Shown: in pieces, positions 3,306 to 30,773 of the stretch
Numbering within the stretch: position 1 is the stretch's first letter
How the letters are laid out: the number at the start of each line of letters is the position of its first letter
Notes under the pieces: model-generated
Told to the model about the DNA's origin: nothing
Seen by the model: only the letters and a program-made list of their open reading frames with translations
Databases searched by the model: none
Translations under genes and position numbers: made by a program
Assembly (NCBI GenBank): GCA_964019425.1
Contig: OZ025784.1
Coordinates: 1,612,001-1,676,000, forward strand
Source: Flectonema sp. DT1601
Lineage: Eukaryota
Reading direction: 5' to 3'
DNA: 64,000 bases

Positions 3306-3348
3306 TTATTTTTTTTAATATTAACAGGCAGTTGGGTTCCTCAGTACG

Positions 3349-7554: not shown

Positions 7555-9507
7555 ATGAATAAGTTGCTGCGATTTCGAAAACCGTACGTTGGGACCCCGT
7601 CAGCACTGCATGCGAAGATTCTAATTGACGGAAGGTTTGCCTGTTGGGTGTTTTGATTTCTGTATTCGCAATACTTCGTACTTGTGTTCCCTGACAAAGT
7701 TTCTTCTTTAACTTATTTTGTTCCTTTTTCGTCGTGAGGGCATTCGAGTGCTCGTTGTTTTCACTTTGTTGCACATCTTTGAAGAACTCGTGTGTCCTCA
7801 TCAACACACAAACAGTGTTCCTTGTTTGAAGACTATTGAGAAGTTGAATGAAAAAGGTTTTGATGGAAGTTACGACCAGGTGTTGATCTTCTTCTGTTTT
7901 AGTTCTCTTTTCTGTGAATCTCACATTGCAACCTCCGAGTGCAATGCAGCCAACTGAGTGTTGACAACCACTTCAATACCTCACTCAATCAGATTTGTCA
8001 AGCACGTAGTCTACAGCGAGCAAGAGTTGGCAGCGAGACGGCACTCGCTGATTGGAAGGTTGGTAAGTTCCCCATAAGAGATGTTTTGTGTGAGAGGAAA
8101 CCTTACGTTGGGAAGCCATCGAAGGAACATGAAAGGATTCTGATTGACAAAAGGTATTCTTTTGTTTGAATTGAAAGCACTCCTGTTGTGCAACTGGCAA
8201 TCGAATACCACAACTGAATACTAATTACAGCGTTTCGTATGCAGAGACGGGTCGTAGGTTGGATGCCATGGGATATGATGGGAATTTCAATCAGGTGTGT
8301 GTTTGTTGTAACGTGAGAATGTGTTTCTCTCATTACTCGTAGTGCCTAGTATTCGCGTTGTACTGTTGGTGTTGATTTGATGTCACACGTTGAGGAATTG
8401 ATTTGGAGTAGAGTCTGCAATGTTTCTAAATTAGTAAAACTGTTTAGCAATTCATCTTATTGCTTCTCAGCTTTGATCGATTTAAATAACTTTAATCTGA
8501 ATCAGATAACAACTGCGAGACGAAACCAGTTTGCGAGAGTTGGTATGGACGCTGACCAACGTGACAGGGAACACATCACAGTCATCTTATCGAAGAGGAA
8601 ACCTTACGTTGGGAAGCCATCGAAGGAACATGAAAGGATTCTGATTGACAAAAGGTATTCTTTTGTTTGAATTGAAAGCACTCCTGTTGTGCAACTGACA
8701 ATCGAATACCACAACTGAATACTAATTACAGCGTTTCGTATGCAGAGACGGGTCGTAGGTTGGACGCCATGGGATATGATGGGAATTACCATCAGGTGTG
8801 TGTGTGTTGTACCGTGAGTATGTAGTGTCCGCGTCATCTTTCATTACATTACAGTCATTTAAGGTATTAAAAAGACAGATAAAATACTCCCGTTTCAATC
8901 AAAGAGCATCAATCGGTAGGTCTCAGCAAGTGGGGAAGTCTCAACAGACTAATTCCCGTTGGTCTCCTTCCATCAACTTCGTTGGGAAGACGAGGGATGG
9001 CGGGGAGTACCTGGTGGTGGTTGGGACGGGGATCACGGATCTGACGAGCTGCAGGGTGGATGGAAAGACTGATGCGGCTGTGCACGTGACGGTGTGTCAG
9101 AATCTGAAAGGAGAGGACGTGGAGTTGGAGGCGGGGGAGTACACCAACTCGGTATGTGAATCCTCATAATGAATAGCATTGTGTGCACTGTGTGGTGATG
9201 TTGGAGCAGAAATGCCATCCGTGGTGTTTGCCTGAGAATAGAAAGGCAGGGCGGAGAAAACAATTCACAGCGGAGGCTGCCCTCAGGGATATTGCCGGAA
9301 GCAGGTGGGAAGTGCCGAGTGAGGATCGAAGGAGGTGTGGCGATGTTGAGGATCCCCATCGTGAAAGACGTTTTGTCTGTTCCGCAGGTGGTGGAGGTGG
9401 TTGAGGGTGTGAGGAGTTGGGAGGAGTTGCTGGAGGAAGTAGTACCAGAGGTAGTGCTGAAGGAAGAAGTGATGAAAGCATCCGTCCCTGTTGATGAGGA
9501 GTCTTGA
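7555..9507 (+). CDS. HTH-like repeat + alpha-crystallin-like protein, copy 1 (3 repeats, 8 exons, 363 aa)
   Basis: Exons 7555-7634, 7816-7879, 7993-8153, 8231-8294, 8506-8654, 8732-8795, 8879-9151 and 9271-9507 join by GT-AG into one uninterrupted ORF. Helix motifs: YDQ|ICQARS, FNQ|ITTARR, YHQ|IKYSRF. The start codon is less certain. Confidence 0.8.
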
Positions 9508-10193
9508 CAGGACACTCTGATTCCTATTTGATGAACCATCTCTCATAGTTCCCTTGTGTTGAATGTTGACCTCTTTTAGTATTACTTGAATCTTTGTTAT
9601 CAACAGGGAGTACAACATCATAATGTAAATAGTACTTGAGTAGTGAAGTAAAGGATTACAAGAATAATGATTGAGAATAGTTCTGTAGAATAACCAAAAG
9701 GTTTAAAGTCCTTTAATATCAATTTCTTAATAAATAGGAGTTCAAAGTACTTCTCAAGGGAAGAAGATGATGATGATGATGATGTATTATAAAGAAACAA
9801 TAAAATAAAATTCGATTTTGTAATAATCGTAATTGTTAGTAATGAATTGATAAATAATATATTTTTTTCAGTCAAAAAAAAGTAATGTAAATTGTTTACA
9901 GATGGCAGCTGAAGAGTGAGGAACTGATTGTTTGTTTTTTCTTCATATTTGGATTCTCTGAGTTAGTGTTATCGAGTAGCATTCTAACATCTCGTGGAAT
10001 ACAATCAGATTCCTAATTGATCGTCTCACAGCTAATTTAATGAATTGGTTCACAGATGATGACAAAAGAACAAAGCTAATTCAACTCTGTTAGAGAACTG
10101 TTGACCGCAGAGTAAGTAATCGGAGGCATTTTATGATTCTGTTCTGGTGGTGGGAAATCTAATTTCTAATTACCTTCTGCAGCATACACTGTG

Positions 10194-11677
10194 ATGAATA
10201 AGTTGCTGCGATTTCGAAAACCGTACGTTGGGACCCCGTCAGCACTGCATGCGAAGATTCTAATTGACAGAAGGTTTGCCTGTTGGGTGTTTTGATTTCT
10301 GTATTTGGAATACTTCGTACTTGTGTTCCCTGACAAAGTTTCTTCTTTAACTTATTTTGTTCCTTTTTTGTCGTGAGGGCATTCGAGTGTTCGTTGTTTT
10401 CACTTTGTTGCACATCTTTGAAGAACTTGTCTGTCCTCATCAACACACAAACAGTGTTCCTTGTTTGAAGACTATTGAGAAGTTGAATGAAAAAGGTTTT
10501 GATGGAAGTTACGACCAGGTGTTGATCTCTTCTTCTGTTTTAGTTCTCTTTTCTGTTAATCTCACATTGCAACCTCCGAGTGCAATGCAGCCAACTGAGT
10601 GTTGACAACCACTTCAATACCTCACTCAATTAGATTTGTCAAGCACGTAGTCTACAGCGAGCACCAGTTTGCACAGAGAAGACACTCGCTGATTGGAAGG
10701 TTGGTAAGTTCCCCATTGGAGATGTTTTATCTGAGAGGAAACCTTACGTTGGGAAGCCATCGAAGGAACATGAAAGGATTCTGATTGACAAAAGGTATTC
10801 TTTTGTTTGAATTGAAAGCACTCCTGTTGTGCAACTGGCAATCGAATACCACAACTGAATACTAATTACAGCGTTTCGTATGCAGAGACGGGTCGTAGGT
10901 TGGATGCCATGGGATATGATGGGAATTACCATCAGGTGTGTGTTTGTTGTACCGTAAGAATGTAGTATCCGCTTCATCTTTCATTACTCTTCCAAGTTGA
11001 AGTAGAGTTTATATGTCATTTAAGGTTTTAAAACGACAGATAAAATACTCCCGTTTCAATCAAAGAGCTTCAATCGGTATGTCTCAGCAAGTGGGGAAGT
11101 CTCAACAGACTAGTTCCCGTTGGTCTCCTTCCATCAACTTCGTTGGGAAGACGAGGGATGGCGGGGAGTACCTAGTGGTGGTTGGGACGGGGATCACGGA
11201 GCTGACGAGCTGCAGGGTGGATGGAAAGACTGATGCGGCTGTGCACGTGACGGTGTGTCAAAATCTGAAAGGAGAGGACGTGGAGTTGGAGGAGGGGGAG
11301 TACACCAACTCGGTATGTGAATCCTCATAATGAATAGCATTGTGTGCACTGTGTGGTGATGTTGGAGCAGAAATGCCATCCGTGGTGTTTGCCTGAGAAT
11401 AGAAAGGTTGGAAGAAGAAAACAATTCACAGCGGAGGCTGCCCTCAGGGATCTTGCCGGAAGCAGGTGGGAAGTGCCGAGTGAGGATCGAAGGAGGTGTG
11501 GCGATGTTGAGGATCCCCATCGTGAAAGACGTTTTGTCTGTTCCGCAGGTGGTGGAGGTGGTTGAGGGTGGGAAGGGTGTGAGGAGTTGGGAGGAGTTGC
11601 TGGAGGAAGTAGTACCAGAGGTAGTGCTGAAGGAAGAAGTGATGAAAGCATCCGTCCCTGTTGATGAGGAGTCTTGA
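10194..11677 (+). CDS. HTH-like repeat + alpha-crystallin-like protein, copy 2 (2 repeats)
   Basis: Same exon plan; variable exons start at 10634 (YDQ|ICQARS) and 11040 (YHQ|IKYSRF). Confidence 0.8.
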
Positions 11678-11988: not shown

Positions 11989-13605
11989 ATGCAGCATACT
12001 GATATTAACATCTCTTTAGAACCGTACCGTCAAACTCTGAGTGAATTAACTTCAAGAAGGAACAAAGAGATGAAAGAAGTCATGCGATTTACTGAATACG
12101 AAAGTGAGAATACAACAAACAAAACAAATGGTAAGATGATGAAGAAGTTTAAAAGTGAAGAATGGAATCAAATTGAGAAATACTTGAAAGAGACGATGCT
12201 TCACAATACAACATACGACTATGGAGGGTTATTAAAGAACAAGAACACTAACTCGACTATCACTACCAGTAGTAAGTTAAACAGCATGCATGATAAAAAT
12301 AGACACCATCAGCAATTATCATACTTCGCAACCGGAAATGAAGTTTTTGTTTTTCCAGATAGAATGACGAGAGAAGGAGTGACGAGAGAGATTGTTAATA
12401 GGAGACTGCGATACCTTGCTGAGCAACCAAAGAAACTCTGGCCAAGAGGAAGACCAATGAATCATAAAAGTGATATTTTAGATCGAAACATCAACAAACA
12501 AGTAGCTCCTCTGTCTTCTATTCTACAGCAACGAATTGAAAGATGTAAACAGTCAAAAGATTATCAAAAAGAAGTTAGGAAACGTCATCAACAACAATTA
12601 GAATCCCGTGAGAGGAATCTTATTCAAAAACTATCAGACAAAGCTATGAAGTGTTGTAAAGATGACCTACAGCAGAAGAGATCACGATGTGAAAGCTGGT
12701 TGAAAACAATACAAAGCATCAACTCAATGGCGACCGTAAGGATTATTATCCAGTACAACAGAGCGCTGGTGGGAATCCGAGAACGTGAAGAAAAAACCGT
12801 GAGAAACGCAAGAAAGAGATTGATGGATCCGGTAACAGAAAGACGACGAGTCATGAGCAGGGAATTAATTACGAAATTAACAAGAAAAGTAAAACCAGTT
12901 CTGGGGTTGTTCAGAAATGTTAAACAACTGAATGATAGTATTAATATTGTGAAAGCATCATTTAACAACAGAGGACTATGTAAGTACAGAATTAGATTAT
13001 TTGTAAGACACGTTATATCATTACAAAGGTTCGCAAGGAGGTTACGAAGAACAAACAAAGCCAGACTCGCTCTTTTCATCGTTCAGTTTAACTCATTGGA
13101 AGCAGCAGTTCTAAAGGCTGACTCATCCCCTGGAGGAGGAGGTGGAGGAGGAGTTCTGTCTCCAGGGATACTACATTCGGTGAAAAGGAAAGTTCTTGAA
13201 TCTGAAATCACAGAACTACTGACGGTGTATAAACTTGCTTTGGGAATGTGGAAACAATGTGGTGATGTTGCTCGCAGGAACCTTCAAGAAGTTGAACATT
13301 CACTCAGAGCTCGTTTTTTGTTGGGATCTTCCAACAGCTGTGATGTGAACAACAGTCATCCTGCAATCCCTCACTTGGTCAGAATCTTACCTTCGACTAT
13401 AATGCAAGATATCATTCTTAAAGCAGCCCGAGTACAAAACGAAGTGGAGTCAAACTGGGAAGTTGACCCTCACATTAGCAAACATAACATTATAAAAGAA
13501 AGACAACAATGCATAACAAATATTTACTATTCTGAGAAGAAGAAGGAACAATTATTTCTGGAAAAGGTCGACGTGGGATTAAGGAAATATGGAAGTTCAC
13601 TTTAG
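11989..13605 (+). CDS. Basic coiled-coil protein with IQ-like motif, 538 aa, copy A
   Basis: Long ORF with VISLQRFARRLRR (IQ-like) and a Gly7 tract. An AG immediately upstream means further 5' exons are possible. Confidence 0.75.
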   Translation: MQHTDINISLEPYRQTLSELTSRRNKEMKEVMRFTEYESENTTNKTNGKMMKKFKSEEWNQIEKYLKETMLHNTTYDYGGLLKNKNTNSTITTSSKLNSMHDKNRHHQQLSYFATGNEVFVFPDRMTREGVTREIVNRRLRYLAEQPKKLWPRGRPMNHKSDILDRNINKQVAPLSSILQQRIERCKQSKDYQKEVRKRHQQQLESRERNLIQKLSDKAMKCCKDDLQQKRSRCESWLKTIQSINSMATVRIIIQYNRALVGIREREEKTVRNARKRLMDPVTERRRVMSRELITKLTRKVKPVLGLFRNVKQLNDSINIVKASFNNRGLCKYRIRLFVRHVISLQRFARRLRRTNKARLALFIVQFNSLEAAVLKADSSPGGGGGGGVLSPGILHSVKRKVLESEITELLTVYKLALGMWKQCGDVARRNLQEVEHSLRARFLLGSSNSCDVNNSHPAIPHLVRILPSTIMQDIILKAARVQNEVESNWEVDPHISKHNIIKERQQCITNIYYSEKKKEQLFLEKVDVGLRKYGSSL

Positions 13606-14045: not shown

Positions 14046-15943
14046 ATGAATAAGTTGCTGCGATTTCGAAAACCGTACGTTGGGACCCCGTCAGCACTGC
14101 ATGCGAAGATTCTAATTGACGGAAGGTTTGCCTGTTGGGTGTTTTGATTTCTGTATTCGCAATACTTCGTACTTGTGTTCCCTGACAAAGTTTCTTCTTC
14201 AAATTTATTTTGTTCCTTTTTTGTCGTGAGGGCATTCGAGTGTTCGTTGTTTTCACTTTGTTGCACATCTTTGAAGAACTTGTCTGTCCTCATCAACACA
14301 CAAACAGTGTTCCTTATTTGAAGACTATTGAGAAGTTGAATGAAAAAGGTTTTGATGGCAGTTACCACCAGGTGTTGATCTCTTCTTCTGTTTTAGTTCT
14401 CTTTTCTGTTAATCTCACATTGCAACCTCCGAGTGCAATGCAGCCAACTGAGTGTTGACAACCACTTCAATACCTCACTCAATCAGATTCATCATGCACG
14501 TAGTCTACAGCGAGCACAAGTTGGCAGCGAGAAGACACTCGCTGATTGGAAGGTTGGTAAGTTCCCCACGAAAGATGTTTTGTGTGAGAGGAAACCTTAC
14601 GTTGGGAAGCCATCGAAGGAACATGAAAGGATTCTGATTGACAAAAGGTATTCTTTTGTTTGAATTGAAAGCACTCCTGTTGTGCAACTAGCAATCGAAT
14701 ACCACAACTGAATACTAATTACAGCGTTTCGTATGCAGAGACGGGTCGTAGGTTGGATGCCATGGGATATGATGGGAATTACAATCAGGTGTGTGTCTGT
14801 ACTGTTGGTGTTGATTTGCTGTCAAACGTTGAGGAATTGATTTGGAGTAGAGTCTGCAATGTTTCTAAATTAGTAAAACTGTTTAGCAATTCATCTTATT
14901 GCTTCTCAGCTTTGAACGATTTAAATAACTTTAAACTGAATCAGATAACAACTGCGAGACAGAAACAGTTTGCGGGAGTTGGTATGTACGCACAACGAGA
15001 GTCTATCAAAATTGTCTTATCGAAGAGGAAACCTTACGTTGGGAAGCCATCGAAGGAACATGAAAGGATTCTGATTGACAAAAGGTATTCTTTTGTTTGA
15101 ATTGAAAGCACTCCTGTTGTGCAACTAGCAATCGAATACCACAACTGAATACTAATTACAGCGTTTCGTATGCAGAGACGGGTCGTAGGTTGGATGCCAT
15201 GGGATATGATGGGAATTATAATCAGGTGTGTGTTTGCTGTACCGTGGGAATGTGTTTCTTTCATTACTCTTCTTTGTTAAAGGAAACAACAACAGATACG
15301 CAAAGCTCGTTGTAATCATCTAAGAGCTCCAGTCGTTATGTCTCGACAGTCTAGTTCTCGATGTTTAGGAACTGCTGCTCGTAGTTGGTCTCCTTCCATC
15401 AACTTCGTTGGGAAGACGAGGGATGGCGGGGAGTACCTGGTGGTGGTTGGGACGGGGATCACGGAGCTGACGAGCTGCAGGGTGGATGGAAAGACTGATG
15501 CGGCTGTGCACGTGACGGTGTGTCAGAATCTGAAGGGAGAGGACGTGGAGTTGGAGGCGGGGGAGTACACCAACTCGGTATGTGAATCCTCATAATGAAT
15601 AGCATTGTGTGCACTGTGTGGTGATGTTGGAGCAGAAATGCCATCCGTGGGTGTTTGCCTGAGAATAGAAAGGTTGGAAGAAGAAAACAATTCACAGCGG
15701 AGGCTGCCCTCAGGGATCTTGCCGGAAGCAGGTGGGAAGTGCCGAGTGAGGATCGAAGGAGGTGTGGCGATGTTGAGGATCCCCATCGTGAAAGACGTTT
15801 TGTCTGTTCCGCAGGTGGTGGAGGTGGTTGAGGGTAGGAAGGGTGTGAGGAGTTGGGAGGAGTTGCTGGAGGAAGTAGTACCAGAGGTAGTGCTGAAGGA
15901 AGAAGTGATGAAAGCATCCGTCCCTGTTGATGAGGAGTCTTGA
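14046..15943 (+). CDS. HTH-like repeat + alpha-crystallin-like protein, copy 3 (3 repeats)
   Basis: Variable exons start at 14487 (YHQ|IHHARS), 14945 (YNQ|ITTARQ) and 15296 (YNQ|IRKARC); the frame is preserved. Confidence 0.8.
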
Positions 15944-16263: not shown

Positions 16264-17910
16264 ATGCAGCATACTGATATTAACATCTCTTTAGAACCGT
16301 ACCGTCAAACTCTGAGTGAATTAACTTCAAGAAGGAACAAAGAGATGAAAGAAGTCATGCGATTTACTGAATACGAAAGTGAGAATACAACAAACAAAAC
16401 AAATGGTAAGATGATGAAGAAGTTTAAAAGTGAAGAATGGAATCAAATTGAGAAATACTTGAAAGAGACGATGCTTCACAATACAACATACGACTATGGA
16501 GGGTTATTAAAGAACAAGAACACTAACTCGACTATCACTACCAGTAGTAAGTTAAACAGCATGCATGATAAAAATAGACACCATCAGCAATTATCATACT
16601 TCGCAACCGGAAATGAAGTTTTTGTTTTTCCAGATAGAATGACGAGAGAAGGAGTGACGAGAGAGATTGTTAATAGGAGACTGCGATACCTTGCTGAGCA
16701 ACCAAAGAAACTCTGGCCAAGAGGAAGACCAATGAATCATAAAAGTGATATTTTAGATCGAAACATCAACAAACAAGTAGCTCCTCTGTCTTCTATTCTA
16801 CAGCAACGAATTGAAAGATGTAAACAGTCAAAAGATTATCAAAAAGAAGTTAGGAAACGTCATCAACAACAATTAGAATCCCGTGAGAGGAATCTTATTC
16901 AAAAACTATCAGACAAAGTTATGAAGTGTTGTAAAGATGACCTACAGCAGAAGAGATCACGATGTGAAAGCTGGTTGAAAACAATACAAAGCATCAACTC
17001 AATGGCGACAGTAAGGATTATTATCCAGTACAACAGAGCGCTGGTGGGAATCCGAGAACGTGAAGAAAAAACCGTGAGAAACGCAAGAAAGAGATTGATG
17101 GATCCGGTAACAGAAAGACGACGAGTCATGAGCAGGGAATTAATTACGAAATTAACAAGAAAAGTAAAACCAGTTCTGGGGTTGTTCAGAAATGTTAAAC
17201 AACTGAATGATAGTATTAATATTGTGAAAGCATCATTTAACAACAGAGGACTATGTAAGTACAGAATTAGATTATTTGTAAGACACGTTATATCATTACA
17301 AAGGTTCGCAAGGAGGTTACGAAGAACAAACAAAGCCAGACTCGCTCTTTTCATCGTTCAGTTTAACTCATTGGAAGCAGCAGTTCTAAAGGCTGACTCA
17401 TCCCCTGGAGGAGGAGGTGGAGGAGGAGGAGGAGGTGGAGGAGGAGGTGGAGGAGGAGTTCTGTCTCCAGGGATACTACATTCGGTGAAAAGGAAAGTTC
17501 TTGAATCTGAAATCACAGAACTACTGACGGTGTATAAACTTGCTTTGGGAATGTGGAAACAATGTGGTGATGTTGCTCGCAGGAACCTTCAAGAAGTTGA
17601 ACATTCGCTCAGAGCTCGTTTTTTGTTGGGATCTTCCAACAGCTGTGATGTGAACAACAGTCATCCTGCAATCCCTCACTTGGTCAGAATCTTACCTTCG
17701 ACTATAATGCAAGATATCATTCTTAAAGCAGCCCGAGTACAAAACGAAGTGGAGTCAAACTGGGAAGTTGACCCTCACATTAGCAAACATAACATTATAA
17801 AAGAAAGACAACAATGCATAACAAATATTTACTATTCTGAGAAGAAGAAGGAACAATTATTTCTGGAAAAGGTCGACGTGGGATTAAGGAAATATGGAAG
17901 TTCACTTTAG
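16264..17910 (+). CDS. Coiled-coil/IQ-like protein, copy B (548 aa, Gly17)
   Basis: Nearly identical to 11989-13605, with a 10-codon poly-Gly expansion. Confidence 0.75.
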   Translation: MQHTDINISLEPYRQTLSELTSRRNKEMKEVMRFTEYESENTTNKTNGKMMKKFKSEEWNQIEKYLKETMLHNTTYDYGGLLKNKNTNSTITTSSKLNSMHDKNRHHQQLSYFATGNEVFVFPDRMTREGVTREIVNRRLRYLAEQPKKLWPRGRPMNHKSDILDRNINKQVAPLSSILQQRIERCKQSKDYQKEVRKRHQQQLESRERNLIQKLSDKVMKCCKDDLQQKRSRCESWLKTIQSINSMATVRIIIQYNRALVGIREREEKTVRNARKRLMDPVTERRRVMSRELITKLTRKVKPVLGLFRNVKQLNDSINIVKASFNNRGLCKYRIRLFVRHVISLQRFARRLRRTNKARLALFIVQFNSLEAAVLKADSSPGGGGGGGGGGGGGGGGGVLSPGILHSVKRKVLESEITELLTVYKLALGMWKQCGDVARRNLQEVEHSLRARFLLGSSNSCDVNNSHPAIPHLVRILPSTIMQDIILKAARVQNEVESNWEVDPHISKHNIIKERQQCITNIYYSEKKKEQLFLEKVDVGLRKYGSSL

Positions 17911-18347: not shown

Positions 18348-19807
18348 ATGAATAAGTTGCTGCGATTTCGAAAACCGTACGTTGGGACCCCGTCAGCACT
18401 GCATGCGAAGATTCTAATTGACAGAAGGTTTGCCTGTTGGGTGTTTTGATTTCTGTATTTGCAATACTTCGTACTTGTGTTCCCTGACAAAGTTTTTTCT
18501 TCAAATTTATTTTGTTCCTTTTTTGTCGTGAGGGCATTCGAGTGTTGGTTGTTTTCACTTTGTTGCACATCTTTGAAGAACTTGTCTGTCCTCATCAACA
18601 CACAAACAGTGTTCCTTATTTGAAGACTATTGAGAAGTTGGGTGAAAAAGGTTTTGATGGCAGTTACCACCAGGTGTTGATCTCTTCTTCTGTTTTAGTT
18701 CTCTTTTCTGTGAATCTCACATTGCAACCTCCGAGTGCAATGCAGCCAACTGAGTGTTGACAACCACTTCAATACCTCACTCAATCAGATTCTTAAGGCA
18801 CGTAGTCTACAGCGAGCACCAGTTGGCACAGAGAAGGCACTCGCTGATTGGAAGGTTGGTAAGTTCCCCATAAGAGAAGTTTTGTCTGAGAGGAAACCTT
18901 ACGTTGGGAAGCCATCGAAGGAACATGAAAGGATTCTGATTGACAAAAGGTATTCTTTTGATTGAATTGAAAGCACTCCTGTTGTGCAACTGGCAATCGA
19001 ATACCACAACTGAATACTAATTACAGTGTTTCGATTGCAGAGACGGGTCGTAGGTTGGATGCCATGGGATATGATGGGAATTACAATCAGGTGTGTGTTT
19101 GTTGTACCGTGAGAAGGTAGTGTGTGTGTCATGTTTCATTACTCTTCTTTGTTGAGGAAATAACGACAGATAAGAAATTGTCGTTTTAATCAAAGGGTCG
19201 GTATGTCTCGACAGACTAATTCTCGATGTTCAGGAACTGCTACTCGTAGTTGGTCTCCTTCCATCAACTTCGTTGGGAAAACGAGAGATGGCGGGGAGTA
19301 CCTGGTGGTGGTTGGGACGGGGATCACGGATCTGAAGAGCTGCAGGGTGGATGGAAAGACTGATGCGGCTGTGCACGTGACGGTGTGTCAGAATCTGAAG
19401 GGAGAGGACGTGGAGTTGGAGGAGGGGGAGTACACCAACTCGGTATGTGAATCCTCATAATGAATAGCATTGTGTGCACTGCGTGGTGATGTTGGAGCAG
19501 AAATGCCATCCGTGGTGTTTGCCTGAGAATAGAAAGGTAGAATCAAGAAAACAATTCACAGCGGAGGCTGCCCTCAGGGATCTTGCCGGAAGCAGGTGGG
19601 AAGTGCCGAGTGAGGATCGAAGGAGGTGTGGCGATGTTGAGGATCCCCATCGTGAAAGACGTTTTATCTGTTCCGCAGGTGGTGGAGGTGGTTGAGGGTG
19701 GGAAGGGTGTGAGGAGTTGGGAGGAGTTGCTGGAGGAAGTAGTACCAGAGGTAGTGCTGAAGGAAGAAGTGATGAAAGCATCCGTCCCTGTTGATGAGGA
19801 GTCTTGA
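18348..19807 (+). CDS. HTH-like repeat + alpha-crystallin-like protein, copy 4 (2 repeats)
   Basis: Variable exons start at 18789 (YHQ|ILKARS) and 19170 (YNQ|IRNCRF). Confidence 0.8.
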
Positions 19808-20112: not shown

Positions 20113-21729
20113 ATGCAGCATACTGATATTAACATCTCTTTAGAACCGTACCGTCAAACTCTGAGTGAATTAACTTCAAGAAGGAACAAAGAGATGAAAG
20201 AAGTCATGCGATTTACTGAATACGAAAGTGAGAATACAACAAACACAACAAATGGTAAGATGATGAAGAAGTTTAAAAGTGAAGAATGGAATCAAATTGA
20301 GAAATACTTGAAAGAGACGATGCTTCACAATACAACATACGACTATGGAGGGTTATTAAAGAACAAGAACACTAACTCGACTATCACTACCAGTAGTAAG
20401 TTAAACAGCATGCATGATAAAAACAGACACCATCAGCAATTATCATACTTCGCAACCGGAAATGAAGTTTTCGTTTTTCCAGATAGAATGACGAGAGAAG
20501 GAGTGACGAGAGAGATTGTTAATAGGAGACTGCGATACCTTGCTGAGCAACCAAAGAAACTCTGGCCAAGAGGAAGACCAATGAATCATAAAAGTGATAT
20601 TTTAGATCGAAACATCAACAAACAAGTAGCTCCTCTGTCTTCTATTCTACAGCAACGAATTGAAAGATGTAAACAGTCAAAAGATTATCAAAAAGAAGTT
20701 AGGAAACGTCATCAACAACAATTAGAATCCCGTGAGAGGAATCTTATTCAAAAACTATCAGACAAAGTTATGAAGTGTTGTAAAGATGACCTACAGCAGA
20801 AGAGATCACGATGTGAAAGCTGGTTGAAAACAATACAAAGCATCAACTCAATGGCGACAGTAAGGATTATTATCCAGTACAACAGAGCGCTGGTGGGAAT
20901 CCGAGAACGTGAAGAAAAAACCGTGAGAAACGCAAGAAAGAGATTGATGGATCCGGTAACAGAAAGACGACGAGTCATGAGCAGGGAATTAATTACGAAA
21001 TTAACAAGAAAAGTAAAACCAGTTCTGGGGTTGTTCAGAAATGTTAAACAACTGAATGATAGTATTAATATTGTGAAAGCATCATTTAACAACAGAGGAC
21101 TATGTAAGTACAGAATTAGATTATTTGTAAGACACGTTATATCATTACAAAGGTTCGCAAGGAGGTTACGAAGAACAAACAAAGCCAGACTCGCTCTTTT
21201 CATCGTTCAGTTTAACTCATTGGAAGCAGCAGTTCTAAAGGCTGACTCATCCCCTGGAGGAGGAGGTGGAGGAGGAGTTCTGTCTCCAGGGATACTACAT
21301 TCGGTGAAAAGGAAAGTTCTTGAATCTGAAATCACAGAACTACTGACGGTGTATAAACTTGCTTTGGGAATGTGGAAACAATGTGGTGATGTTGCTCGCA
21401 GGAACCTTCAAGAAGTTGAACATTCACTCAGAGCTCGTTTTTTGTTGGGATCTTCCAACAGCTGTGATGTGAACAACAGTCATCCTGCAATCCCTCACTT
21501 GGTCAGAATCTTACCTTCGACTATAATGCAAGATATCATTCTTAAAGCAGCCCGAGTACAAAACGAAGTGGAGTCAAACTGGGAAGTTGACCCTCACATT
21601 AGCAAACATAACATTATAAAAGAAAGACAACAATGCATAACAAATATTTACTATTCTGAGAAGAAGAAGGAACAATTATTTCTGGAAAAGGTCGACGTGG
21701 GATTAAGGAAATATGGAAGTTCACTTTAG
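20113..21729 (+). CDS. Coiled-coil/IQ-like protein, copy C (538 aa)
   Basis: About two amino-acid differences from copy A. Confidence 0.75.
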   Translation: MQHTDINISLEPYRQTLSELTSRRNKEMKEVMRFTEYESENTTNTTNGKMMKKFKSEEWNQIEKYLKETMLHNTTYDYGGLLKNKNTNSTITTSSKLNSMHDKNRHHQQLSYFATGNEVFVFPDRMTREGVTREIVNRRLRYLAEQPKKLWPRGRPMNHKSDILDRNINKQVAPLSSILQQRIERCKQSKDYQKEVRKRHQQQLESRERNLIQKLSDKVMKCCKDDLQQKRSRCESWLKTIQSINSMATVRIIIQYNRALVGIREREEKTVRNARKRLMDPVTERRRVMSRELITKLTRKVKPVLGLFRNVKQLNDSINIVKASFNNRGLCKYRIRLFVRHVISLQRFARRLRRTNKARLALFIVQFNSLEAAVLKADSSPGGGGGGGVLSPGILHSVKRKVLESEITELLTVYKLALGMWKQCGDVARRNLQEVEHSLRARFLLGSSNSCDVNNSHPAIPHLVRILPSTIMQDIILKAARVQNEVESNWEVDPHISKHNIIKERQQCITNIYYSEKKKEQLFLEKVDVGLRKYGSSL

Positions 21730-22165: not shown

Positions 22166-23621
22166 ATGAATAAGTTGCTGCGATTTAGAAAACCGTACGT
22201 TGGGACCCCGTCAGCACTGCATGCGAAAATTCTAATTGACAGAAGGTTTGCCTGTTGGGTGTTTTGATTTCTGTATTTGCAATACTTCGTACTTGTGTTC
22301 CCTGACAAAGTTTCTTCTTTAACTTTTTTTGTTCCCTTTTTTGTCGTGAGGGCATTCGAGTGTTGGTTGTTTTCACTTTGTTGCACATCTTTGAAGAACT
22401 TATCTGTCCTCATCAACACACAAACAGTGTTCCTTATTTGAAGACTATTGAGAAGTTGAATGAAAAAGGTTTTGATGGCAGTTACGACCAGGTGTTGATC
22501 TCTTCTTCTGTTTTAGTTCTCTTTTCTGTGAATCTCACATTGCAACCTCCGAGTGCAATGCAGCCAACTGAGTGTTGACAACCACTTCAATACCTCACTC
22601 AATTAGATTCAACAAGCACGTAGGCTGCAGCGAGCAGTAGTTGGCACAGAGAAAACAGTCGCTGATTGGAAGGTTGGTAAGTTCCATGCAAGAGATGTTT
22701 TGTTTGAGAGGAAAGGTTACGTTGGGAAGCCATCGAAGGAACATGAAAGGATTCTGATTGACAAAAGGTATTCTTTTGTTTGAATTGAAAGCACTCCTGT
22801 TGTGCAACTGGCAATCGAATACCACAACTGAATACTAATTACAGCGTTTCGATTGCAGAGACGGGTCGTAGGTTGGATGCCATGGGATATGATGGGAATT
22901 ACCATCAGGTTTGTGTTTGCTGTAGTGAGAATGTGTTGTCAGTTTCATCTTTCATCAGTGTGGTAATTAATCACAGATTCACAAAGCTCGTTGTAATCAA
23001 AGAGCTCCAGTCGGTATGTCCCAACAGACTAATACTCGATGTTCAGGAACTGCTACTCGTAGTTGGTCTCCTTCCATCAACTTCGTTGGGAAGACGAGGG
23101 ATGGCGGGGAGTACCTGGTGGTAGTTGGAACGGGGAACACGGATCTGACGAGCTGCAGGGTGGATGGAAAGACTGATGCGGCTGTGCACGTGACGGTGTG
23201 TCAGAATCTGAAGGGAGAGGACGTGGAGTTGGAGGCGGGGGAGTACACCAACTCGGTATGTGAATCCTCATAATGAATAGCATTGTGTGCACTGTGTGGT
23301 GATGTTGGCGCAGAAATGCCATCCGTGGGTGTTTGCCTGAGAATAGAAAGGCAGGAAGAAGAAAACAATTCACAGCGGAGGCTGCCCTCAGGGATCTTGC
23401 CGGTAGCAGGTGGGAAGTGCCGAGTGAGGATCGAAGGAGGTGTGGCGATGTTGAGGATTCCCATCGTGAAAGACGTTTTGTCTGTTCCGCAGGTGGTGGA
23501 GGTGGTTGAGGGTGGGAAGGGTGTGAGGAGTTGGGAGGAGTTGCTGGAAGAAGTAGTACCAGAGGTAGTGCTGAAGGAAGAAGTGATGAAAGCATCCGTC
23601 CCTGTTAATGAGGAGTCTTGA
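22166..23621 (+). CDS. HTH-like repeat + alpha-crystallin-like protein, copy 5 (2 repeats)
   Basis: Variable exons start at 22607 (YDQ|IQQARR) and 22977 (YHQ|IHKARC). Confidence 0.8.
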
Positions 23622-24576
23622 CAGGACACTCTGATTCCTATTTGATGAACCATCTCTCATAGTTCCCTTGTGTTGAATGTTGACCTCTTTTAGTATTACT
23701 TGAATCTTTGTTATCAACAGGGAGTACAACATCATAATGTAAATAGTACTTGAGTAGTGAAGTAAAGGATTACAGAGGGTGTTGAAACTTTTCTAATTTA
23801 AGATTTTCGAATTGTTATTTAATTCTTATTTTCTTCAACAAGATTTGTAATCTGAAGATTTCAATGGATGAAATTAAAATCTTTCAGTGAGTATCAATTG
23901 GTGGACGAGTCTGGTCATCACCCCGCTCTTTGGTGATGTTCTTAGCAAGAAAGTTAAGAATATTTAGCAGAAAGAAGTTTTTCTAATTCATGAGATTGTG
24001 TTTTTTGTGTAGCTCACTTAAATTGAGCATTATTCTGTCGAGAACTTTGTGTTCGCTTATGTCGTCTTTGTCTAGAAAGTAATTCTACGGATTAAGAATG
24101 ATGACCAATACTTGTAATTGAGGTTTACGATGAGAAGAGTGAAGACTTCCACTTTGAAGTAGTATCTGTTACGGAAAGTATTCTTAAAGTTCTCACTCCT
24201 CATCTTTAACATGAACTGGATTTCATTTTCTTTTTTCAGAACTTCTCTCTTTTCCTAAATAACATTACAACCTGAGAGTGAATGTACGAAGATGATTAAA
24301 TTAGAAGAGAGTTGTGAACTATCAAAGTATTCTAAACCTGTTCATTGACTTCATCATAGCAGTGATCAATTGTACTCTGAACACTACACTATCAAAGAAG
24401 GAAAGGTTTGAAAGTTCTTTAAATAACATTTACCTCACTTCAGGTGTGAAAAGGTCATGTTGTGTGTAACATTATCGTAGCTGCTTGCTGACTTCCATTT
24501 AGTTATGAAGTTGAGAATTGAGAGAAGTGTTTTGTACATAATTCCACATCAGCTGCTTTGGTTATATAAAGTGGAA

Positions 24577-27140
24577 ATGAATAAATTATTAAGATTTCGA
24601 AAACCGTACGTTGGGACCCCGTCAGCACTGCATGCGAAGATTCTAATTGACAGAAGGTTTGCCTGTTGGGTGTTTTGATTTCTGTATTTGGAATACTTCG
24701 TACTTGTGTTCTCTGACAAAGTTTCTTCTTTAACTTATTTTATTTCCTTTTTTGTCGTGAGGGCATTCGAGTGTTCGTTGTTTTCACTTTGTTGCACATC
24801 TTTGAAGAACTTGTCTGTCCCCATCAACACACAAACAGTGTTCCTTATTTGAAGACTATTGAGAAGTTGAATGAAAAAGGTTTTGATGGCAGTTACAACC
24901 AGGTGTTGATCTCTTCTTCTGTTTTAGTTCTCTTTTCTGTGAATCTCACATTGCAACCTCCGAGTGCAATGCAGCCAACTGAGTGTTGACAACCACTTCA
25001 ATACCTCACTCAATCAGATTTGTCAAGCACGTAGTCTACAGCGAACACCGGTTGGCACAGAGAAGACACTCGCTGATTGGAAGGTTGGTAAGTTCCCCAC
25101 AAAAGATGTTTTATCTGAGAGGAAACCTTACGTTGGGAAGCCATCGAAGGAACATGAAAGGATTCTGATTGACAAAAGGTATTTTGTTTGAATTGAAAGC
25201 ACTCCTGTTGTGCAACTGGCAATCGAATACCACAACTGAATACTAATTACAGCGTTTCGATTGCAGAGACGGGTCGTAGGTTGGATGCCATGGGATATGA
25301 TGGGAATTACAATCAGGTGTGTGTCTGTACTGTTGGTGTTGATTTGATGTCACACGTTGAGGAATTGATTTGGAGTAGAGTCTGCAATGTTTCTAAATTA
25401 GTAAAACTGTTTAGCAATTCATCTTATTGCTTCTCAGCTTTGATCGATTTAAATAACTTTAAACTGAAGCAGATAATGACTGCGAGAGAAAACCAGTTTG
25501 CGGGAGTTGGTATGGACGCTGATCAACGTGACAGGGAACCCATCACAGTCATCTTATCGAAGAGGAAACCTTACGTTGGGAAGCCATCGAAGGAACATGA
25601 AAGGATTCTGATTGACAAAAGGTATTCTTTTGATTGAATTGAAAGCACTCCTGTTGTGCAACTGGCAATCGAATACCACAACTGAATACTAATTACAGCG
25701 TTTCGTATGCAGAAACGGGTCGTAGGTTGGATGCCATGGGATATGATGGGAATTACAATCAGGTGTGTGTCTGTACTGTTGGTGTTGAGTTGATGTCACA
25801 CGTTGAGGAATTGATTTGGAGTAGAGTCTGCAATGTTTCTAAATTAGTAAAACTGTTTAGCAATTCATCTTATTGCTTCTCAGCTTTGATCGATTTAAAT
25901 AGGAAATTTCCCCGTTGCTACTCCAAAACTTTATTTTTCTCCGTTGTAGTCCACCTATAAGGATTTTTCTCCGTTGTGTTTTCTTTTCTTTTCTTTTTTT
26001 GCTGTTGTGTGCACAACAGCGAGAAAACTAAAAGAGTTGTTCACAATAGCGAAAAATCTTCTTGGGTGTAGGCAACGGAGAAAAAGCTTTTTTTTAATGT
26101 AGGCAACTGAGAATTCTCCATCTAAATAACTTTGAACTGAATCAGATAACAACTGCGAGACAAAACAAGTTTGCGCGAGTTGGTATGGATGCACAACGAG
26201 AATCTATCAAAGTTGTGTTATCGAAGAGGAAACCTTACGTTGGGAAGCCATCGAAGGAACATGAAAGGATTCTGATTGACAAAAGGTATTCTTTTGATTG
26301 AATTGAAAGCACTCCAGTTGTGCAACTGGCAATCGAATACCACAACTGAATACTAATTACAGCGTTTCGTATGCAGAGACGGGTCGTAGGTTGGATGCCA
26401 TGGGATATGATGGGAATTACCATCAGGTGTGTGTTTGCTGTACCGTGGGAATGTGTTTCTTTCATTACTCTCCTTAGTTGAGGAAACAACGACAGATACA
26501 CAAAGCTCGTTCTAATCAAAGGGCACTTGTCGGTATGTCTCGACAGTCTAGTTGTCGATGTTCAGGAACTGCTACTCGTAGTTGGTCTCCTTCCATCAAC
26601 TTCGTTGGGAAGACGAGGGATGGCGGGGAGTACCTGGTGGTGGTTGGGACGGGGATCACGGATCTGACGAGCTGCAGGGTGGATGGAAAGACTGATGCGG
26701 CTGTGCACGTGACGGTGTGTCAGAATCTGAAGGGAGAGGACGTGGAGTTGGAGGCGGGGGAGTACACCAACTCGGTATGTGAATCCTCATAATGAATAGC
26801 ATTGTGTGCACTGTGTGGTGATGTTGGCGCAGAAATGCCATCCGTGGGTGTTTGCCTGAGAATAGAAAGGTTGGAAGAAGAAAACAATTCACAGCGGAGG
26901 CTGCCCTCAGGGATCTTGCCGGAAGCAGGTGGGAAGTGCCGAGTGAGGATCGAAGGAGGTGTGGCGATGTTGAGGATCCCCATCGTGAAAGACGTTTTGT
27001 CTGTTCCGCAGGTGGTGGAGGTGGTTGAGGGTGGGAAGGGTGTGAGGAGTTGGGAGGAGTTGCTGGAGGAAGTAGTACCAGAGGTAGTGCTGAAGGAAGA
27101 AGTGATGAAAGCATCCGTCCCTGTTGATGAGGAGTCTTGA
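24577..27140 (+). CDS. HTH-like repeat + alpha-crystallin-like protein, copy 6 (4 repeats)
   Basis: Variable exons start at 25018 (YNQ|ICQARS), 25473 (YNQ|IMTARE), 26146 (YNQ|ITTARQ) and 26496 (YHQ|IHKARS). A MITE lies in one intron. Confidence 0.8.
25902..26119. mobile_element. 218-bp MITE with ~17-bp TIRs and 9-bp TSD (Mutator-like)
   Basis: Absent from the paralogous introns (near 8480, 14920, 25450). Ends GGAAATTTCCCCGTTGC / GCAACTGAGAATTCTCC; flanks ATTTAAATA / ATCTAAATA. Confidence 0.8.
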
Positions 27141-27454
27141 CAGGACACTCTGATTCCTATTTGATGAACCATCTCTCATAGTTCCCTTGTGTTGAATGTT
27201 GACCTCTTTTAGTATTACTTGAATCTTTGTTATCAACAGGGAGTACAACATCATAATGTAAATAGTACTTGAGTAGTGAAGTAAAGGATTACAAGAATAA
27301 TGATTGAGAATAGTTCTGTAGAATAACCAAAAGGTTTAAAGTTCTTTAATATCAATTTCTTAATAAATAGGAGTTCAAAGTACTTCTCAAGGGAAGAAGA
27401 TGATGATGATGATGATGATGTATTATAAAGAAACAATAAAATAAAACAATAGAT

Positions 27455-28874
27455 ATGCAGCATACTGATATTAACATCTCTTTAGAACCGTACCGTCAAA
27501 CTCTGAGTGAAGAACACCAACTCGACTATCACTACCAGTAGTAAGTTAAACAGCATGCATGATAAAAACAGACACCATCAGCAATTATCATACTTCGCAA
27601 CCGGAAATGAAGTTTTCGTTTTTCCAGATAGAATGACGAGAGAAGGAGTGACGAGAGAGATTGTTAATAGGAGACTACGATACCTTGCTGAGCAACCAAA
27701 GAAACTCTGGCCAAGAGGAAGACCAATGAATCATAAAAGTGATATTTTAGATCGAAACATCAACAAACAAGTAGCTCCTCTGTCTTCTATTCTACAGCAA
27801 CGAATTGAAAGATGTAAACAGTCAAAAGATTATCAAAAAGAAGTTAGGAAACGTCATCAACAACAATTAGAATCCCGTGAGAGGAATCTTATTCAAAAAC
27901 TATCAGACAAAGCTATGAAGTGTTGTAAAGATGACCTACAGCAGAAGAGATCACGATGTGAAAGCTGGTTGAAAACAATACAAAGCATCAACTCAATGGC
28001 GACCGTAAGGATTATTATCCAGTACAACAGAGCGCTGGTGGGAATCCGAGAACGTGAAGAAAAAACTGTGAGAAACGCAAGAAAGAGATTGATGGATCCG
28101 GTAACAGAAAGACGACGAGTCATGAGCAGGGAATTAATTACGAAGTTAACAAGAAAAGTAAAACCAGTTCTAGGGTTGTTCAGAAATGTTAAACAACTGA
28201 ATGATAGTATTAATATTGTGAAAGCATCATTTAACAACAGAGGACTATGTAAGTACAGAATTAGATTATTTGTAAGACACGTTATATCATTACAAAGGTT
28301 CGCAAGGAGGTTACGAAGAACAAACAAAGCCAGACTCGCTCTTTTCATCGTTCAGTTTAACTCATTGGAAGCAGCAGTTCTAAAGGCTGACTCATCCCCT
28401 GGAGGAGGAGGTGGAGGAGGAGTTCTGTCTCCAGGGATACTACATTCGGTGAAAAGGAAAGTTCTTGAATCTGAAATCACAGAACTACTGACGGTGTATA
28501 AACTTGCTTTGGGAATGTGGAAACAATGTGGTGATGTTGCTCGCAGGAACCTTCAAGAAGTTGAACATTCACTCAGAGCTCGTTTTTTGTTGGGATCTTC
28601 CAACAGCTGTGATGTGAACAACAGTCATCCTGCAATCCCTCACTTGGTCAGAATCTTACCTTCGACTATAATGCAAGATATCATTCTTAAAGCAGCCCGA
28701 GTACAAAACGAAGTGGAGTCAAACTGGGAAGTTGACCCTCACATTAGCAAACATAACATTATAAAAGAAAGACAACAATGCATAACAAATATTTACTATT
28801 CTGAGAAGAAGAAGGAACAATTATTTCTGGAAAAGGTCGACGTGGGATTAAGGAAATATGGAAGTTCACTTTAG
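27455..28874 (+). pseudogene. Coiled-coil/IQ-like gene copy D with a 197-bp frameshifting 5' deletion
   Basis: The ATG at 27455 reads MQHTDINISLEPYRQTLSE, then shifts frame and stops early. The span is 1420 bp versus 1617 bp; the rest of the ORF is intact. Confidence 0.7.
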
Positions 28875-29311
28875 TGAGAACCCACAAAGATGTTTTTATT
28901 CTCCTTCTTTCAGACTTTCTTATTTACACCTATTTTGTAATAATCGTAATTGTTAGTAATGAATTGATAAATAATATATTTTTTTTTCAGTCAGAAAAAG
29001 TAATGTAAATTGTTTACAGATGGCAGCTGAAGAGTGAGGAACTGATTGTTTGTTTTTTCTTCATATTTGGATTCTCTGAGTTAGTGTTATCGAGTAGCAT
29101 TCTAACATCTCGTGGAATACAATCAGATTCCTAATTGATCGTCTCACAGCTAATTTAATGAATTGGTTCACAGATGATGACAAAAGAACAAAGCTAATTT
29201 AACTCTGTTAGAGAACTGTTGACCGCAGAGTAAGTAATCGGAGGCATTTTATGATTCTGTTCTGGTTGTGGGAAATCTAATTTCTAATTACCTTCTGCAG
29301 CACACACTGTG

Positions 29312-30773
29312 ATGAATAAGTTGCTGCGATTTCGAAAACCGTACGTTGGGACCCCGTCAGCACTGCATGCGAAGATTCTAATTGACAGAAGGTTTGCCTG
29401 TTGGGTGTTTTGATTTCTGTATTTGGAATACTTCGTACTTGTGTTCCCTGACAAAGTTTCTTCTTTAACTTTATTTGTTCCCTTTTTCTTGTGAGGGCAT
29501 TCGAGTGTTCGTTGTTTTCACTTTGTTGCACATCTTTGAAGAACTTGTCTGTCCTCATCAACACACAAACAGTGTTCCTTGTTTGAAGACTATTGAGAAG
29601 TTGAATGAAAAAGGTTTTGATGGCAGTTGCGACCAGGTGTTGATCTCTTCTTCTGTTTTAGTTCTCTTTTCTGTGAATCTCACTTTACAACCTCCGAGTG
29701 CAATGCAGCCACTGAGTGTTGACAACCACTTCAATACCTCACTCAATTAGATTCGTCACGCACGTAGTCTACAGCGAGCACCAGTTGGCAAAAAGAAGAC
29801 ACTCGCTGATTGGAAGGTTGGTAAGTTCCCCATAAGAGATGTTTTATCTGAGAGGAAACGTTACGTTGGGAAGCCATCGAAGGAACATGAAAGGATTCTG
29901 ATTGACAAAAGGTATTCTTTTGTTTGAATTGAAAGCACTCCTGTTGTGCAACTGGCAATCGAATACCACAACTGAATACTAATTACAGCGTTTCGTATGC
30001 AGAGACGGGTCGTAGGTTGGATGCCATGGGATATGATGGGAATTACCATCAGGTGTGTATTTGCTGTAGTGAGAATGTAGTGTCTGTGTCTTGTTTCACT
30101 ACTCTTCTTAGTTGAAGGAAATAACGACAGATAAGAAATTGTCGTTTCGATCAAAGAGCTGCTATCAGTTTGTCTCGACAGTCTAGTTCTCGATGTTCAG
30201 GAACTGCTACTCGTAGTTGGTCTCCTTCCATCAGCTTCGTTGGGAAGACGAGGGATGGCGGGGAGTACCTGGTGGTGGTTGGGACGGGGATCACGGATCT
30301 GAAGAGCTGCAGGGTGGATGGAAAGACTGATGCGGCTGTGCACGTGACGGTGTGTCAGAATCTGAAGGGAGAGGACGTGGAGTTGGAGGAGGGGGAGTAC
30401 ACCAACTCGGTATGTGAATCCTCATAATGAATAGCATTGTGTGCACTTGGTGGTGATGTTGGAGCAGAAATGCCATCCGTGGTGTTGCTTGAGGAAAGAA
30501 AGGTAGGAAGAAGAAAACAATTCACAGCGGAGGCTGCCCTCAGGGATCTTGCCGGAAGCAGGTGGGAAGTGCCGAGTGAGGATCGAAGGAGGTGTGGTGA
30601 TGTTGAGGATCCCCATCGTGAAAGACGTTTTGTCTGTTCCGCAGGTGGTGGAGGTGGTTGAGGGTGCGAAGGGTGTGAGGAGTTGGGAGGAGTTGCTGGA
30701 GGAAGTAGTACCAGAGGTAGTGCTGAAGGAAGAAGTGATGAAAGCATCCGTCCCTGTTGATGAGGAGTCTTGA
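29312..30773 (+). CDS. HTH-like repeat + alpha-crystallin-like protein, copy 7 (2 repeats)
   Basis: Variable exons start at 29751 (CDQ|IRHARS) and 30131 (YHQ|IRNCRF). Confidence 0.8.

Follow-up and report, generated by a model that had tools for sequence, protein, structure and literature searches.

The 64-kb window analyzed here (64,000 nucleotides of contig OZ025784.1, assembly GCA_964019425.1, from the diplonemid Flectonema sp. DT1601, a marine single-celled eukaryote) contains seven tandem copies of one gene at positions 7555-30773 on the + strand. Each copy encodes two to four copies of one repeat followed by a common C-terminal domain, which raises the question of what such proteins are and what their repeats recognize. 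Results from this study suggest, with somewhat better than even confidence, that the seven genes form a diplonemid family whose members combine 2-4 predicted three-helix helix-turn-helix (HTH) repeats with a likely alpha-crystallin domain (ACD), and that they are likely sequence-specific DNA binders, each copy likely having its own specificity. The family is apparently undescribed, is so far restricted to one diplonemid lineage and likely represents a fast-diversifying group of DNA-recognition proteins.

Splicing of the tandem genes and their relatives

The genes are spliced, open, coding and variable in repeat number. In the gene models, donors were set by homology, and the acceptor was the sole in-frame YAG (Y, pyrimidine) followed by an Ile codon after each phase-0 donor, which in all 18 cases was one among 4-11 in-frame AG candidates. 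All 43 introns of the seven copies start with GT and end with YAG, and the seven models contain no internal stops (see the table for their lengths and exons). A preliminary description of this DNA had claimed seven spliced, intact ORFs (open reading frames) with 3, 2, 3, 2, 2, 4 and 2 repeats, 18 in total, and a C-terminal domain common to all copies. Both claims were borne out by the models, and the exons that it had listed for copy 1 are joined through 7 GT-AG introns into an open frame of 363 amino acid residues (aa). Where homologous exons differ in length, the difference is always divisible by 3 (gap runs of 9; 3, 6 and 6; and 9), whereas the gaps between homologous introns are mostly not (1, 2, 1, 55, 227, 1 and 1 nucleotides (nt), among others; one is 3).

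Every repeat consists of two exon parts and is cut by one phase-2 intron and one phase-0 intron. Thus, repeat number changes through duplication of whole exon modules. The exons are only 64-280 nt in size and the full-length product is absent from the protein collections searched, so that genes of this kind are easily overlooked. No further repeat copies were found in the window by a six-frame scan with a hidden Markov model (HMM).

A reading-frame profile from the window, searched against 1.84 billion proteins, gave 7 matches, of which 5 were Trinity ORFs of the diplonemid Flectonema neradi. P0019 and P0021 were dropped as relatives, as they are low-complexity repeats matched over 24-27 positions only, which leaves the F. 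neradi ORFs as the sole real relatives in that collection. The identities between these transcript ORFs and the window repeats were 50-60%. P0015 contains two full repeats with both junctions joined and P0017 contains one repeat; both read IDK-S/R-VS and Q-I uninterrupted across the two repeat junctions. P0016 and P0018 enter an intron at the position of the first repeat intron of the window genes (LIDK, then RY), and P0018 also enters one at the second position (Q, then VC). Thus, in a close relative the repeat is transcribed and spliced as modelled. The splicing proposed in the preliminary description is therefore backed by transcripts of F. neradi as far as the repeats are concerned. The last junction, between exons 7 and 8, is supported only by a colinear HSP20 alignment, which is described below.

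Three side observations concern the gene models. The 156-nt introns at 14789-14944 and 25317-25472 are in frame and free of stops, and their retention would add 52 aa before helix 3. Retained introns are likewise seen in F. neradi P0016 and P0018. The in-frame introns of copies 3 and 6 were rejected as coding, as the homologous introns elsewhere are out of frame or contain stops. In addition, a pyrimidine-rich stretch with an AG 12 nt upstream of the ATG (7515-7554 and homologous sites) is found in 6 of the 7 copies and is a candidate spliced-leader acceptor.

Searches beyond F. neradi gave no additional relatives. With exon 7, neither a word-index search of longer proteins (117 candidates) nor an alignment to proteins of 50-165 aa (3250 candidates) identified a relative, and a word-index search with P0015 matched the F. 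neradi ORFs only. Sequence searches of Pfam, NCBIfam, PHROGs and PDB gave nothing above noise, in agreement with the preliminary description, in which the family was not recognized. A Pfam scan of the 5 F. neradi relatives gave no Myb/SANT, homeodomain or ARID match, and the ESM Atlas gave no usable match to the repeat. Moreover, all 3 plasmid tblastn matches were attributable to chance, none of 97 pattern matches in metagenome contigs was confirmed, and the 5 weak matches in 151 proteobacterial genomes (best E of 0.02) were not convincing. Finally, no published description of the family was found in the literature searched, which largely excluded subscription papers and supplementary gene-family tables.

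Predicted folds of the repeat and of the C-terminal domain

The repeat is likely a tri-helical HTH unit, as judged from a structure model of a relative. AlphaFold2 was run with a 7-row alignment on F. neradi P0015, not on a window protein. In this model, the repeat is a 48-aa three-helix unit with helices at repeat positions 10-17, 23-33 and 39-48, with predicted local distance difference test (pLDDT) scores of 74-88 by ten-residue blocks across both units, and the linkers are disordered. The model thus contains the three-helix bundle, with helix 2, a turn and helix 3, that the preliminary description had proposed, and the folds nearest to it, all of them weak matches, are tri-helical HTH domains. 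The first ten Foldseek rows included the RecQ C-terminus, Tc3, Pax8, Mos1, TnsB, Pax5, ArdK and IstA, and CENP-B and Reb1 came later. The best VIA-align matches among 48,161 chains were a GT-1 trihelix (Z of 4.2, root-mean-square deviation of 2.8, 52 residues aligned) and a terminase small subunit (Z of 4.2), and by their titles 30 of 50 rows were Myb/SANT, homeodomain, transposase or other DNA-binding domains. In addition, the repeat region is basic, with a net charge of +12 to +22.

Several results speak against this fold assignment. The model is of a relative, with a mean pLDDT of 66.8 and a predicted template modelling score of 0.36. Foldseek gave no E below 0.001 with it, and VIA-align gave no Z of 5 or more and warns that Z values as low as those obtained may reflect a mere common helical arrangement. 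A viral fold library also gave no E below 0.001.

The preliminary description had further likened the repeat to homeodomain, Myb and Clr5 domains. Regularly spaced Trp or aromatic core residues are a hallmark of Myb/SANT domains, and a WFxNRR-type helix 3 is a hallmark of homeodomains. Judged by its sequence, the window repeat has neither: Trp is absent from positions 1-48 of all 18 window repeats, and helix 3 reads Y-x-Q-I-x-x-A-R. A Clr5 profile was not among the Pfam matches, under filters that drop weak matches. Furthermore, neither Cys2His2 ligands nor a 34-aa TALE repeat was found in the repeat alignment.

The G-Y/F-x-G turn between helices 2 and 3 is a lead toward a transposase origin, not a proof of it. 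Comparison of the repeats with 14 HTH-2 segments of IstA gave a z of 9.2, which fell to 0.4 once six turn residues were masked, and comparisons with IstA HTH-1 and with 12 IS3, 2 IS630 and 12 GerE domains gave a z of at most 1.2. The hhalign probability for the repeat and IstA HTH-2 was 13%. In a turn-based alignment to the solved IstA, T92 and K95 fall on repeat positions 40 and 43; these two residues are named as major-groove contacts of IstA (PMC10122671). Counting against such an origin, the IstA family was chosen for its turn motif, and the likeness lies wholly in this six-residue turn. An active transposon was rejected for want of a catalytic domain: the proteins consist of the repeats, a 100-aa beta domain and a tail, with no DDE catalytic domain and no match to a transposase profile.

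The C-terminal domain is likely an ACD. Its global alignment to 30 proteobacterial HSP20 domains had a mean score of 6.3, compared with -19.4 +/- 4.9 for shuffles (z of 5.25), and this score was reached by none of 1000 shuffles, 1000 block shuffles or 258 windows of other proteins of the window. Both exon halves contribute (z of 3.5 and 2.25; 0 and 9 of 500 shuffles), and the signal appears in the true exon order only, the swapped order giving noise level. Since the signal needs both halves in their true order, it also supports the exon 7/8 junction. Moreover, the motifs W-x-P, G-x-F/Y-x-R/N-S-x-x-L-P and G-V-x-x-x-x-x-P follow each other in the order and spacing expected of the domain over about 95 aa. 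The assignment made in the preliminary description thus stands in the targeted global alignment and fails in a local one, where an HMM of 30 HSP20 sequences scored -1.0 bits on the spliced domain, with 286 of 2000 shuffles as high. Other results also argue against an ACD. The hhalign probability for HSP20 was 0.7% (0.2% in global mode), Pfam HSP20 (PF00011) did not match single exons, and a half of the domain matched only weak unnamed or TIG-type rows of the ESM Atlas (0.80-0.84). In addition, a fold model of the first exon of the domain (exon 7) alone, with three strands and a pLDDT of 41, was unusable, and the domain is present in none of the 5 F. neradi ORFs.

Divergence among the copies and proposed function

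Gene conversion has homogenized most of the array, and helix 3 and the linker have stayed divergent. The nonsynonymous (pN) and synonymous (pS) differences of the C-terminal domain were 0.011 and 0.036, respectively, and intron 2 differed by 1.4%. The pN/pS ratios were 0.21-0.30 in the N-terminus, C-terminal domain and tail, and omega was 0.36 outside the divergence islands formed by helix 3 and the linker, where divergence was 0.10-0.33. Within repeat types, entropy was highest at positions 43, 44, 47 and 40, an i, i+3, i+4, i+7 stripe on one face of the helix that points about 190 degrees away from the hydrophobic face. Residues Q41, I42 and R46 are invariant in all 18 repeats, and there is hardly any variation on the exposed faces of helices 1 and 2.

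Selection for divergence, with the linker included, is likely from these sequences. Model M2a was preferred over M1a with a p of 2e-14 for 265 codons and with a p of 1.6e-7 and an omega of 1.87 for the repeat-1 island alone on its own tree, and the positively selected class included codons 47, 50, 51, 59, 62, 76, 77, 85 and a few more. Recombination is reported to inflate such codon tests (PMC8208926), whereas it cannot inflate a count of alleles per site. By this count, 21 of 78 0-fold sites of the island were segregating, compared with 43 of 485 intron sites (p of 2.6e-5). Moreover, few permutations over the 5' region (12 of 5000) gave a peak like the 6-nt window with 8 changes at codons 50-51.

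Other observations weaken the case for selection on helix 3. Of the informative site pairs, 78 of 136 were incompatible, which indicates heavy gene conversion or recombination and, therefore, inflation of the codon-model tests. The background codons also gave a p of 0.011, and helix 3 of the last repeats gave no selection signal (omega of 0.39, p of 1). The 4-fold sites of the island are themselves raised, and the 0-fold sites did not differ from them (21 of 78 versus 4 of 18, p of 0.77). The peak at codons 50-51 was ordinary inside the island (797 of 5000 permutations), the linker is as variable as helix 3 and the helical-face test gave a p of 0.08. Given the recombination, the background signal and the equality of 0-fold and 4-fold sites, selection is likely rather than proven.

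In the mechanism that we propose, each repeat is predicted to fold into an arm, helix 1, helix 2, the G-Y-x-G turn and helix 3. By analogy with known HTH domains, helix 3 would enter the major groove, where positions 40, 43, 44 and 47 would read bases, and the basic arm or linker would lie in the minor groove, as in the tandem domains of IstA, Tc3, Mos1 and CENP-B. The tandem repeats would thereby read a composite site. The C-terminal domain, if it acts like those of the plant proteins discussed below, would dimerize or multimerize, concentrating the protein on repeated sites or recruiting chromatin partners. Helix 3 and the linker would be kept apart among the copies by selection for differing targets, of which changing repeats or mobile elements are the most likely. 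Recognition may thus follow a logic like that of zinc fingers and TALEs, as the preliminary description had suggested, and the variation at helix-3 positions is consistent with it.

Co-transcription of genes is likely in diplonemids, where initiation is likely not the main point of regulation (PMC10161547). The proteins are therefore unlikely to act as classical promoter binders, and their targets would more likely be repeats, mobile elements, the boundaries of clusters or centromeres than single promoters. All long ORFs of the window with a family match or a gene-like look are on the + strand, resembling the unidirectional gene clusters, with GT-AG introns, of Diplonema papillatum (PMC10161547). 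Of ten proteins encoded next to the array, two fall into the same 90% clusters as transcriptome proteins of the diplonemid F. neradi. A wider and more speculative version, which we put forward tentatively as a possibility, is a modular DNA-recognition scaffold. In it, transposase-derived HTH repeats would be used in a zinc-finger-like manner with a four-position helix-3 code (40/43/44/47), repeat number would change by exon-module duplication and the ACD would multimerize the readers on their targets. Such a scaffold would be the diplonemid counterpart of KRAB-zinc-finger or PRDM9 arrays. It would keep pace with repeats, mobile elements or centromeric DNA, in a lineage in which gene-specific control of transcription is believed to be absent.

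The variation among the copies could also arise if proteins with the same folds served as one shared or low-specificity binder of nucleic acid or chromatin, in which helix 3 and the linker would differ only through their exposure, their weak constraint and their escape from gene conversion. We regard this as rather unlikely. Exposed helix faces vary in any family, recombination in the array is heavy, the silent sites of the island are raised to the level of its 0-fold sites within error, and the intron leading up to the last helix 3 shows the same divergence as the exon (0.195), all of which would be expected of such a binder. Less expected are the near-invariance of the exposed faces of helices 1 and 2, the codon test confined to the island and the distribution of sites with three or more bases (7 of 111 in the island versus 2 of 632 elsewhere). 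Nor would it account for the intron before helix 3 of repeat 1, which is nearly invariant (4 changes in 112 sites), the variation beginning at the second codon of the exon.

Sequence-specific DNA binding, the reading that we prefer, also has to be weighed against other ligands. It is quite unlikely that the repeats read RNA, as modular post-transcriptional regulators that are assembled through the ACD in a polycistronic genome: the nearest folds and the turn motif are those of readers of double-stranded DNA, although the long genuine ORFs of the window are all on one strand, initiation is probably not the step at which diplonemid expression is controlled (PMC10161547) and the fold rows include Cdc5, which is Myb-like and has two nucleic-acid surfaces. 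A family of protein-interaction or chaperone proteins, in which the ACD would be the working part and the helical repeats would bind diverse protein clients, or alternatively a mitochondrial role on many small chromosomes, seems very unlikely. Many SANT-type units bind protein, three-helix units of this type from chromatin complexes are among the fold rows, and the short basic N-terminus has a sequence resembling a euglenozoan presequence; the repeats are, however, strongly basic, the variation is on helix 3 only, and the same N-terminal stretch is homologous to the helix before each arm and is extended in F. neradi P0016. Finally, hardly any weight is given to decaying duplicates or an assembly artefact, by which most copies would be silent or the copy number inflated. 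D. papillatum is reported to have a tandem array of ORFs that are not transcribed (PMC10161547), and an ORF co-duplicated with the genes has copies that are 99.3-99.8% identical. Yet none of the 7 gene copies has a stop or frameshift, their exon indels keep the frame, their 43 splice sites are all intact, the copies differ by many clustered codon changes and the relatives in F. neradi are transcribed.

Features of the window and comparison with known systems

Table 1. Positions of the seven genes, of parts of copy 1 and of the co-duplicated ORF in the window.
Feature	Position	Strand	Description
Copy 1	7555..9507	+	363 aa, 3 repeats; exons 7555-7634, 7816-7879, 7993-8153, 8231-8294, 8506-8654, 8732-8795, 8879-9151, 9271-9507
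Copy 2	10194..11677	+	295 aa, 2 repeats; exons 10194-10273, 10455-10518, 10634-10794, 10872-10935, 11040-11312, 11432-11677
Copy 3	14046..15943	+	366 aa, 3 repeats; exons 14046-14125, 14308-14371, 14487-14647, 14725-14788, 14945-15084, 15162-15225, 15296-15577, 15698-15943
Copy 4	18348..19807	+	295 aa, 2 repeats; exons 18348-18427, 18610-18673, 18789-18949, 19027-19090, 19170-19442, 19562-19807
Copy 5	22166..23621	+	297 aa, 2 repeats; exons 22166-22245, 22428-22491, 22607-22767, 22845-22908, 22977-23255, 23376-23621
Copy 6	24577..27140	+	436 aa, 4 repeats; exons 24577-24656, 24839-24902, 25018-25178, 25253-25316, 25473-25621, 25699-25762, 26146-26285, 26363-26426, 26496-26774, 26895-27140
Copy 7	29312..30773	+	297 aa, 2 repeats; exons 29312-29391, 29573-29636, 29751-29911, 29989-30052, 30131-30409, 30528-30773
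Copy 1, divergence island	7993..8103	+	helix 3 of repeat 1, linker and start of the next arm
Copy 1, codons 50-51	7996-8001	+	repeat positions 43-44; within the 5' part of the gene, changes are most densely clustered here
Copy 1, repeat 2 (one full repeat)	8093..8530	+	end of exon 3, basic arm and helix 1; exon 4, helix 2 with the G-Y-x-G turn; start of exon 5, helix 3
Copy 1, likely alpha-crystallin (HSP20-like) domain	8960..9366 (8960-9151 joined to 9271-9366)	+	common to all seven copies
Copy 1, acidic C-terminal tail	9367..9507	+	net charge -7 to -9 across copies
Co-duplicated ORF, first	11989..13605	+	538 aa
Co-duplicated ORF, second	16264..17910	+	548 aa, longer Gly run
Co-duplicated ORF, third	20113..21729	+	538 aa
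Co-duplicated ORF, fourth	27507..28874	+	internal deletion near the 5' end

The intronless 538-aa ORF that lies among the gene copies is present in 4 copies (3-10 differences in 1.4-1.6 kb) and is probably a passenger of the duplications. It has no Pfam, NCBIfam or PDB match, and it contains a stretch that looks IQ-like by eye and a Gly run of 7 to 17 residues. It was rejected as a functional partner of the genes, as it is absent between copies 1 and 2 and between copies 5 and 6, is damaged before copy 7 and has no family match.

Copy 6 may have come from another locus of the family. The DNA upstream of it (23911-24576) is unrelated to the upstream DNA of the other six, yet its ATG and exon 1 are kept, and exon 1 has four silent changes in codons 3-6. 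Intron 6 of this copy carries an insertion of about 227 nt (25901-26122), whose terminal inverted repeats are imperfect and whose two ends carry TAAATA, so that it looks like a miniature inverted-repeat transposable element, and a 77%-like piece of it lies at 3231-3299. Elsewhere in the window, 57-nt inverted arms (91%) at 46422-47445 surround broken frames with a CxxC motif and, by eye, an RNase H-like stretch (46630-46914); this region is probably a decayed retroelement piece. An alpha-galactosidase gene (Melibiase_2, E of 1.5e-103) occurs twice, at 52184-53503 and 61815-63134, with 99.5% identity, and a leucine-rich repeat gene of the BspA type, in which at least eleven units of 75 nt stand in tandem, lies at 55112-56644. 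Pfam matches of other neighbours (3325-6455, 38304-39167, 47913-50725 and 63359-64000) were CID-like (below cut-off), DBC1/LAIKA-like (weak), RRM, Cupin_8/JmjC, BD-FAE esterase and NT5C.

Among known systems, the tandem HTH domains of DDE transposases and of the domesticated forms of these enzymes are similar to the predicted repeats in organization. In IstA, tri-helical HTH units are connected by a basic minor-groove linker, and IS21 IstA, Tc3, Mos1, TnsB, CENP-B and Pax are comparable in having such units and linker (PMC10122671). Tc3, Mos1, TnsB, Pax and IstA were among the top, though weak, Foldseek rows for the P0015 model, and IstA HTH-2 has the G-Y-x-G turn and its register in common with the window repeat. 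Different from these systems, the window genes have neither a DDE domain nor flanking terminal repeats, each gene has 2-4 units that all derive from a single repeat and are joined to a putative C-terminal ACD, and the likeness is limited to six residues. Similarly, Myb/SANT and GT-1 trihelix proteins consist of repeated three-helix units, and SNAPc, Cdc5, Reb1, TRF1 and R2R3-MYB rows came just below GT-1 in VIA-align. The window repeats, however, lack the spaced Trp residues and a Pfam Myb match, and their unit is about 70 aa when the long variable linker is included.

Coupling of a DNA-binding module, here predicted, to an ACD, here likely, is known from plants. ARID2/3/4 of the Arabidopsis PEAT complex and the MBD5/6-ACD15/21 and MBD7-IDM2/3 complexes join such a module to an ACD that is thought to oligomerize or multimerize on chromatin (PMC12071340, PMC12632923). 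Those systems belong to the plant lineage, have one ARID or MBD reader and are not reported to have diversified in tandem, whereas the window genes have an HTH array of variable number and no ARID or MBD Pfam match. If the present reading is true, they would be a second, independent coupling of DNA reader and ACD, outside plants. A kinetoplastid ACD survey, which covers nine proteins, contains none of the terms DNA-binding, helix-turn-helix and diplonem (PMC6197667). In Euglenozoa, the trypanosomatid line has undergone a depletion of known transcription-factor domains, and Pfam counts would miss lineage-specific ones (10.64898/2026.07.29.740908). Moreover, most kinetochore proteins of diplonemids have yet to be identified (10.1101/2024.08.06.606595). 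If true, such a hidden group of sequence-specific readers would be a concrete entry point in Euglenozoa, where genes are likely co-transcribed (PMC10161547).

The evolution of the array resembles that of mammalian homeobox arrays. ETCHbox/LEUTX genes encode tri-helical DNA-binding proteins and form tandem arrays that are lineage-specific and have been moulded by both gene conversion and positive selection (PMC8208926), and DUX arrays are alike in being lineage-specific, tandem and tri-helical with gene conversion. These proteins differ from those of the window in having canonical homeodomains, one or two per protein, and no ACD. TALEs are built of near-identical units of variable number that vary at a few positions. 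The same is true of PRDM9 (PMC3890296) and other C2H2 arrays, whose units are near-identical and variable in number, with variation focused on a few positions of one helix. In comparison with both, the window family has another fold, no metal ligands, only 2-4 units, two introns per unit, a linker that is also variable and no effector enzyme domain, and its recognition code is putative. Natural scaffolds that read DNA unit by unit are few, namely zinc fingers and TALEs; an HTH array of variable number would, if true, be another, and its 18 natural repeats, with variants at four helix positions, would allow a direct reading of its code.

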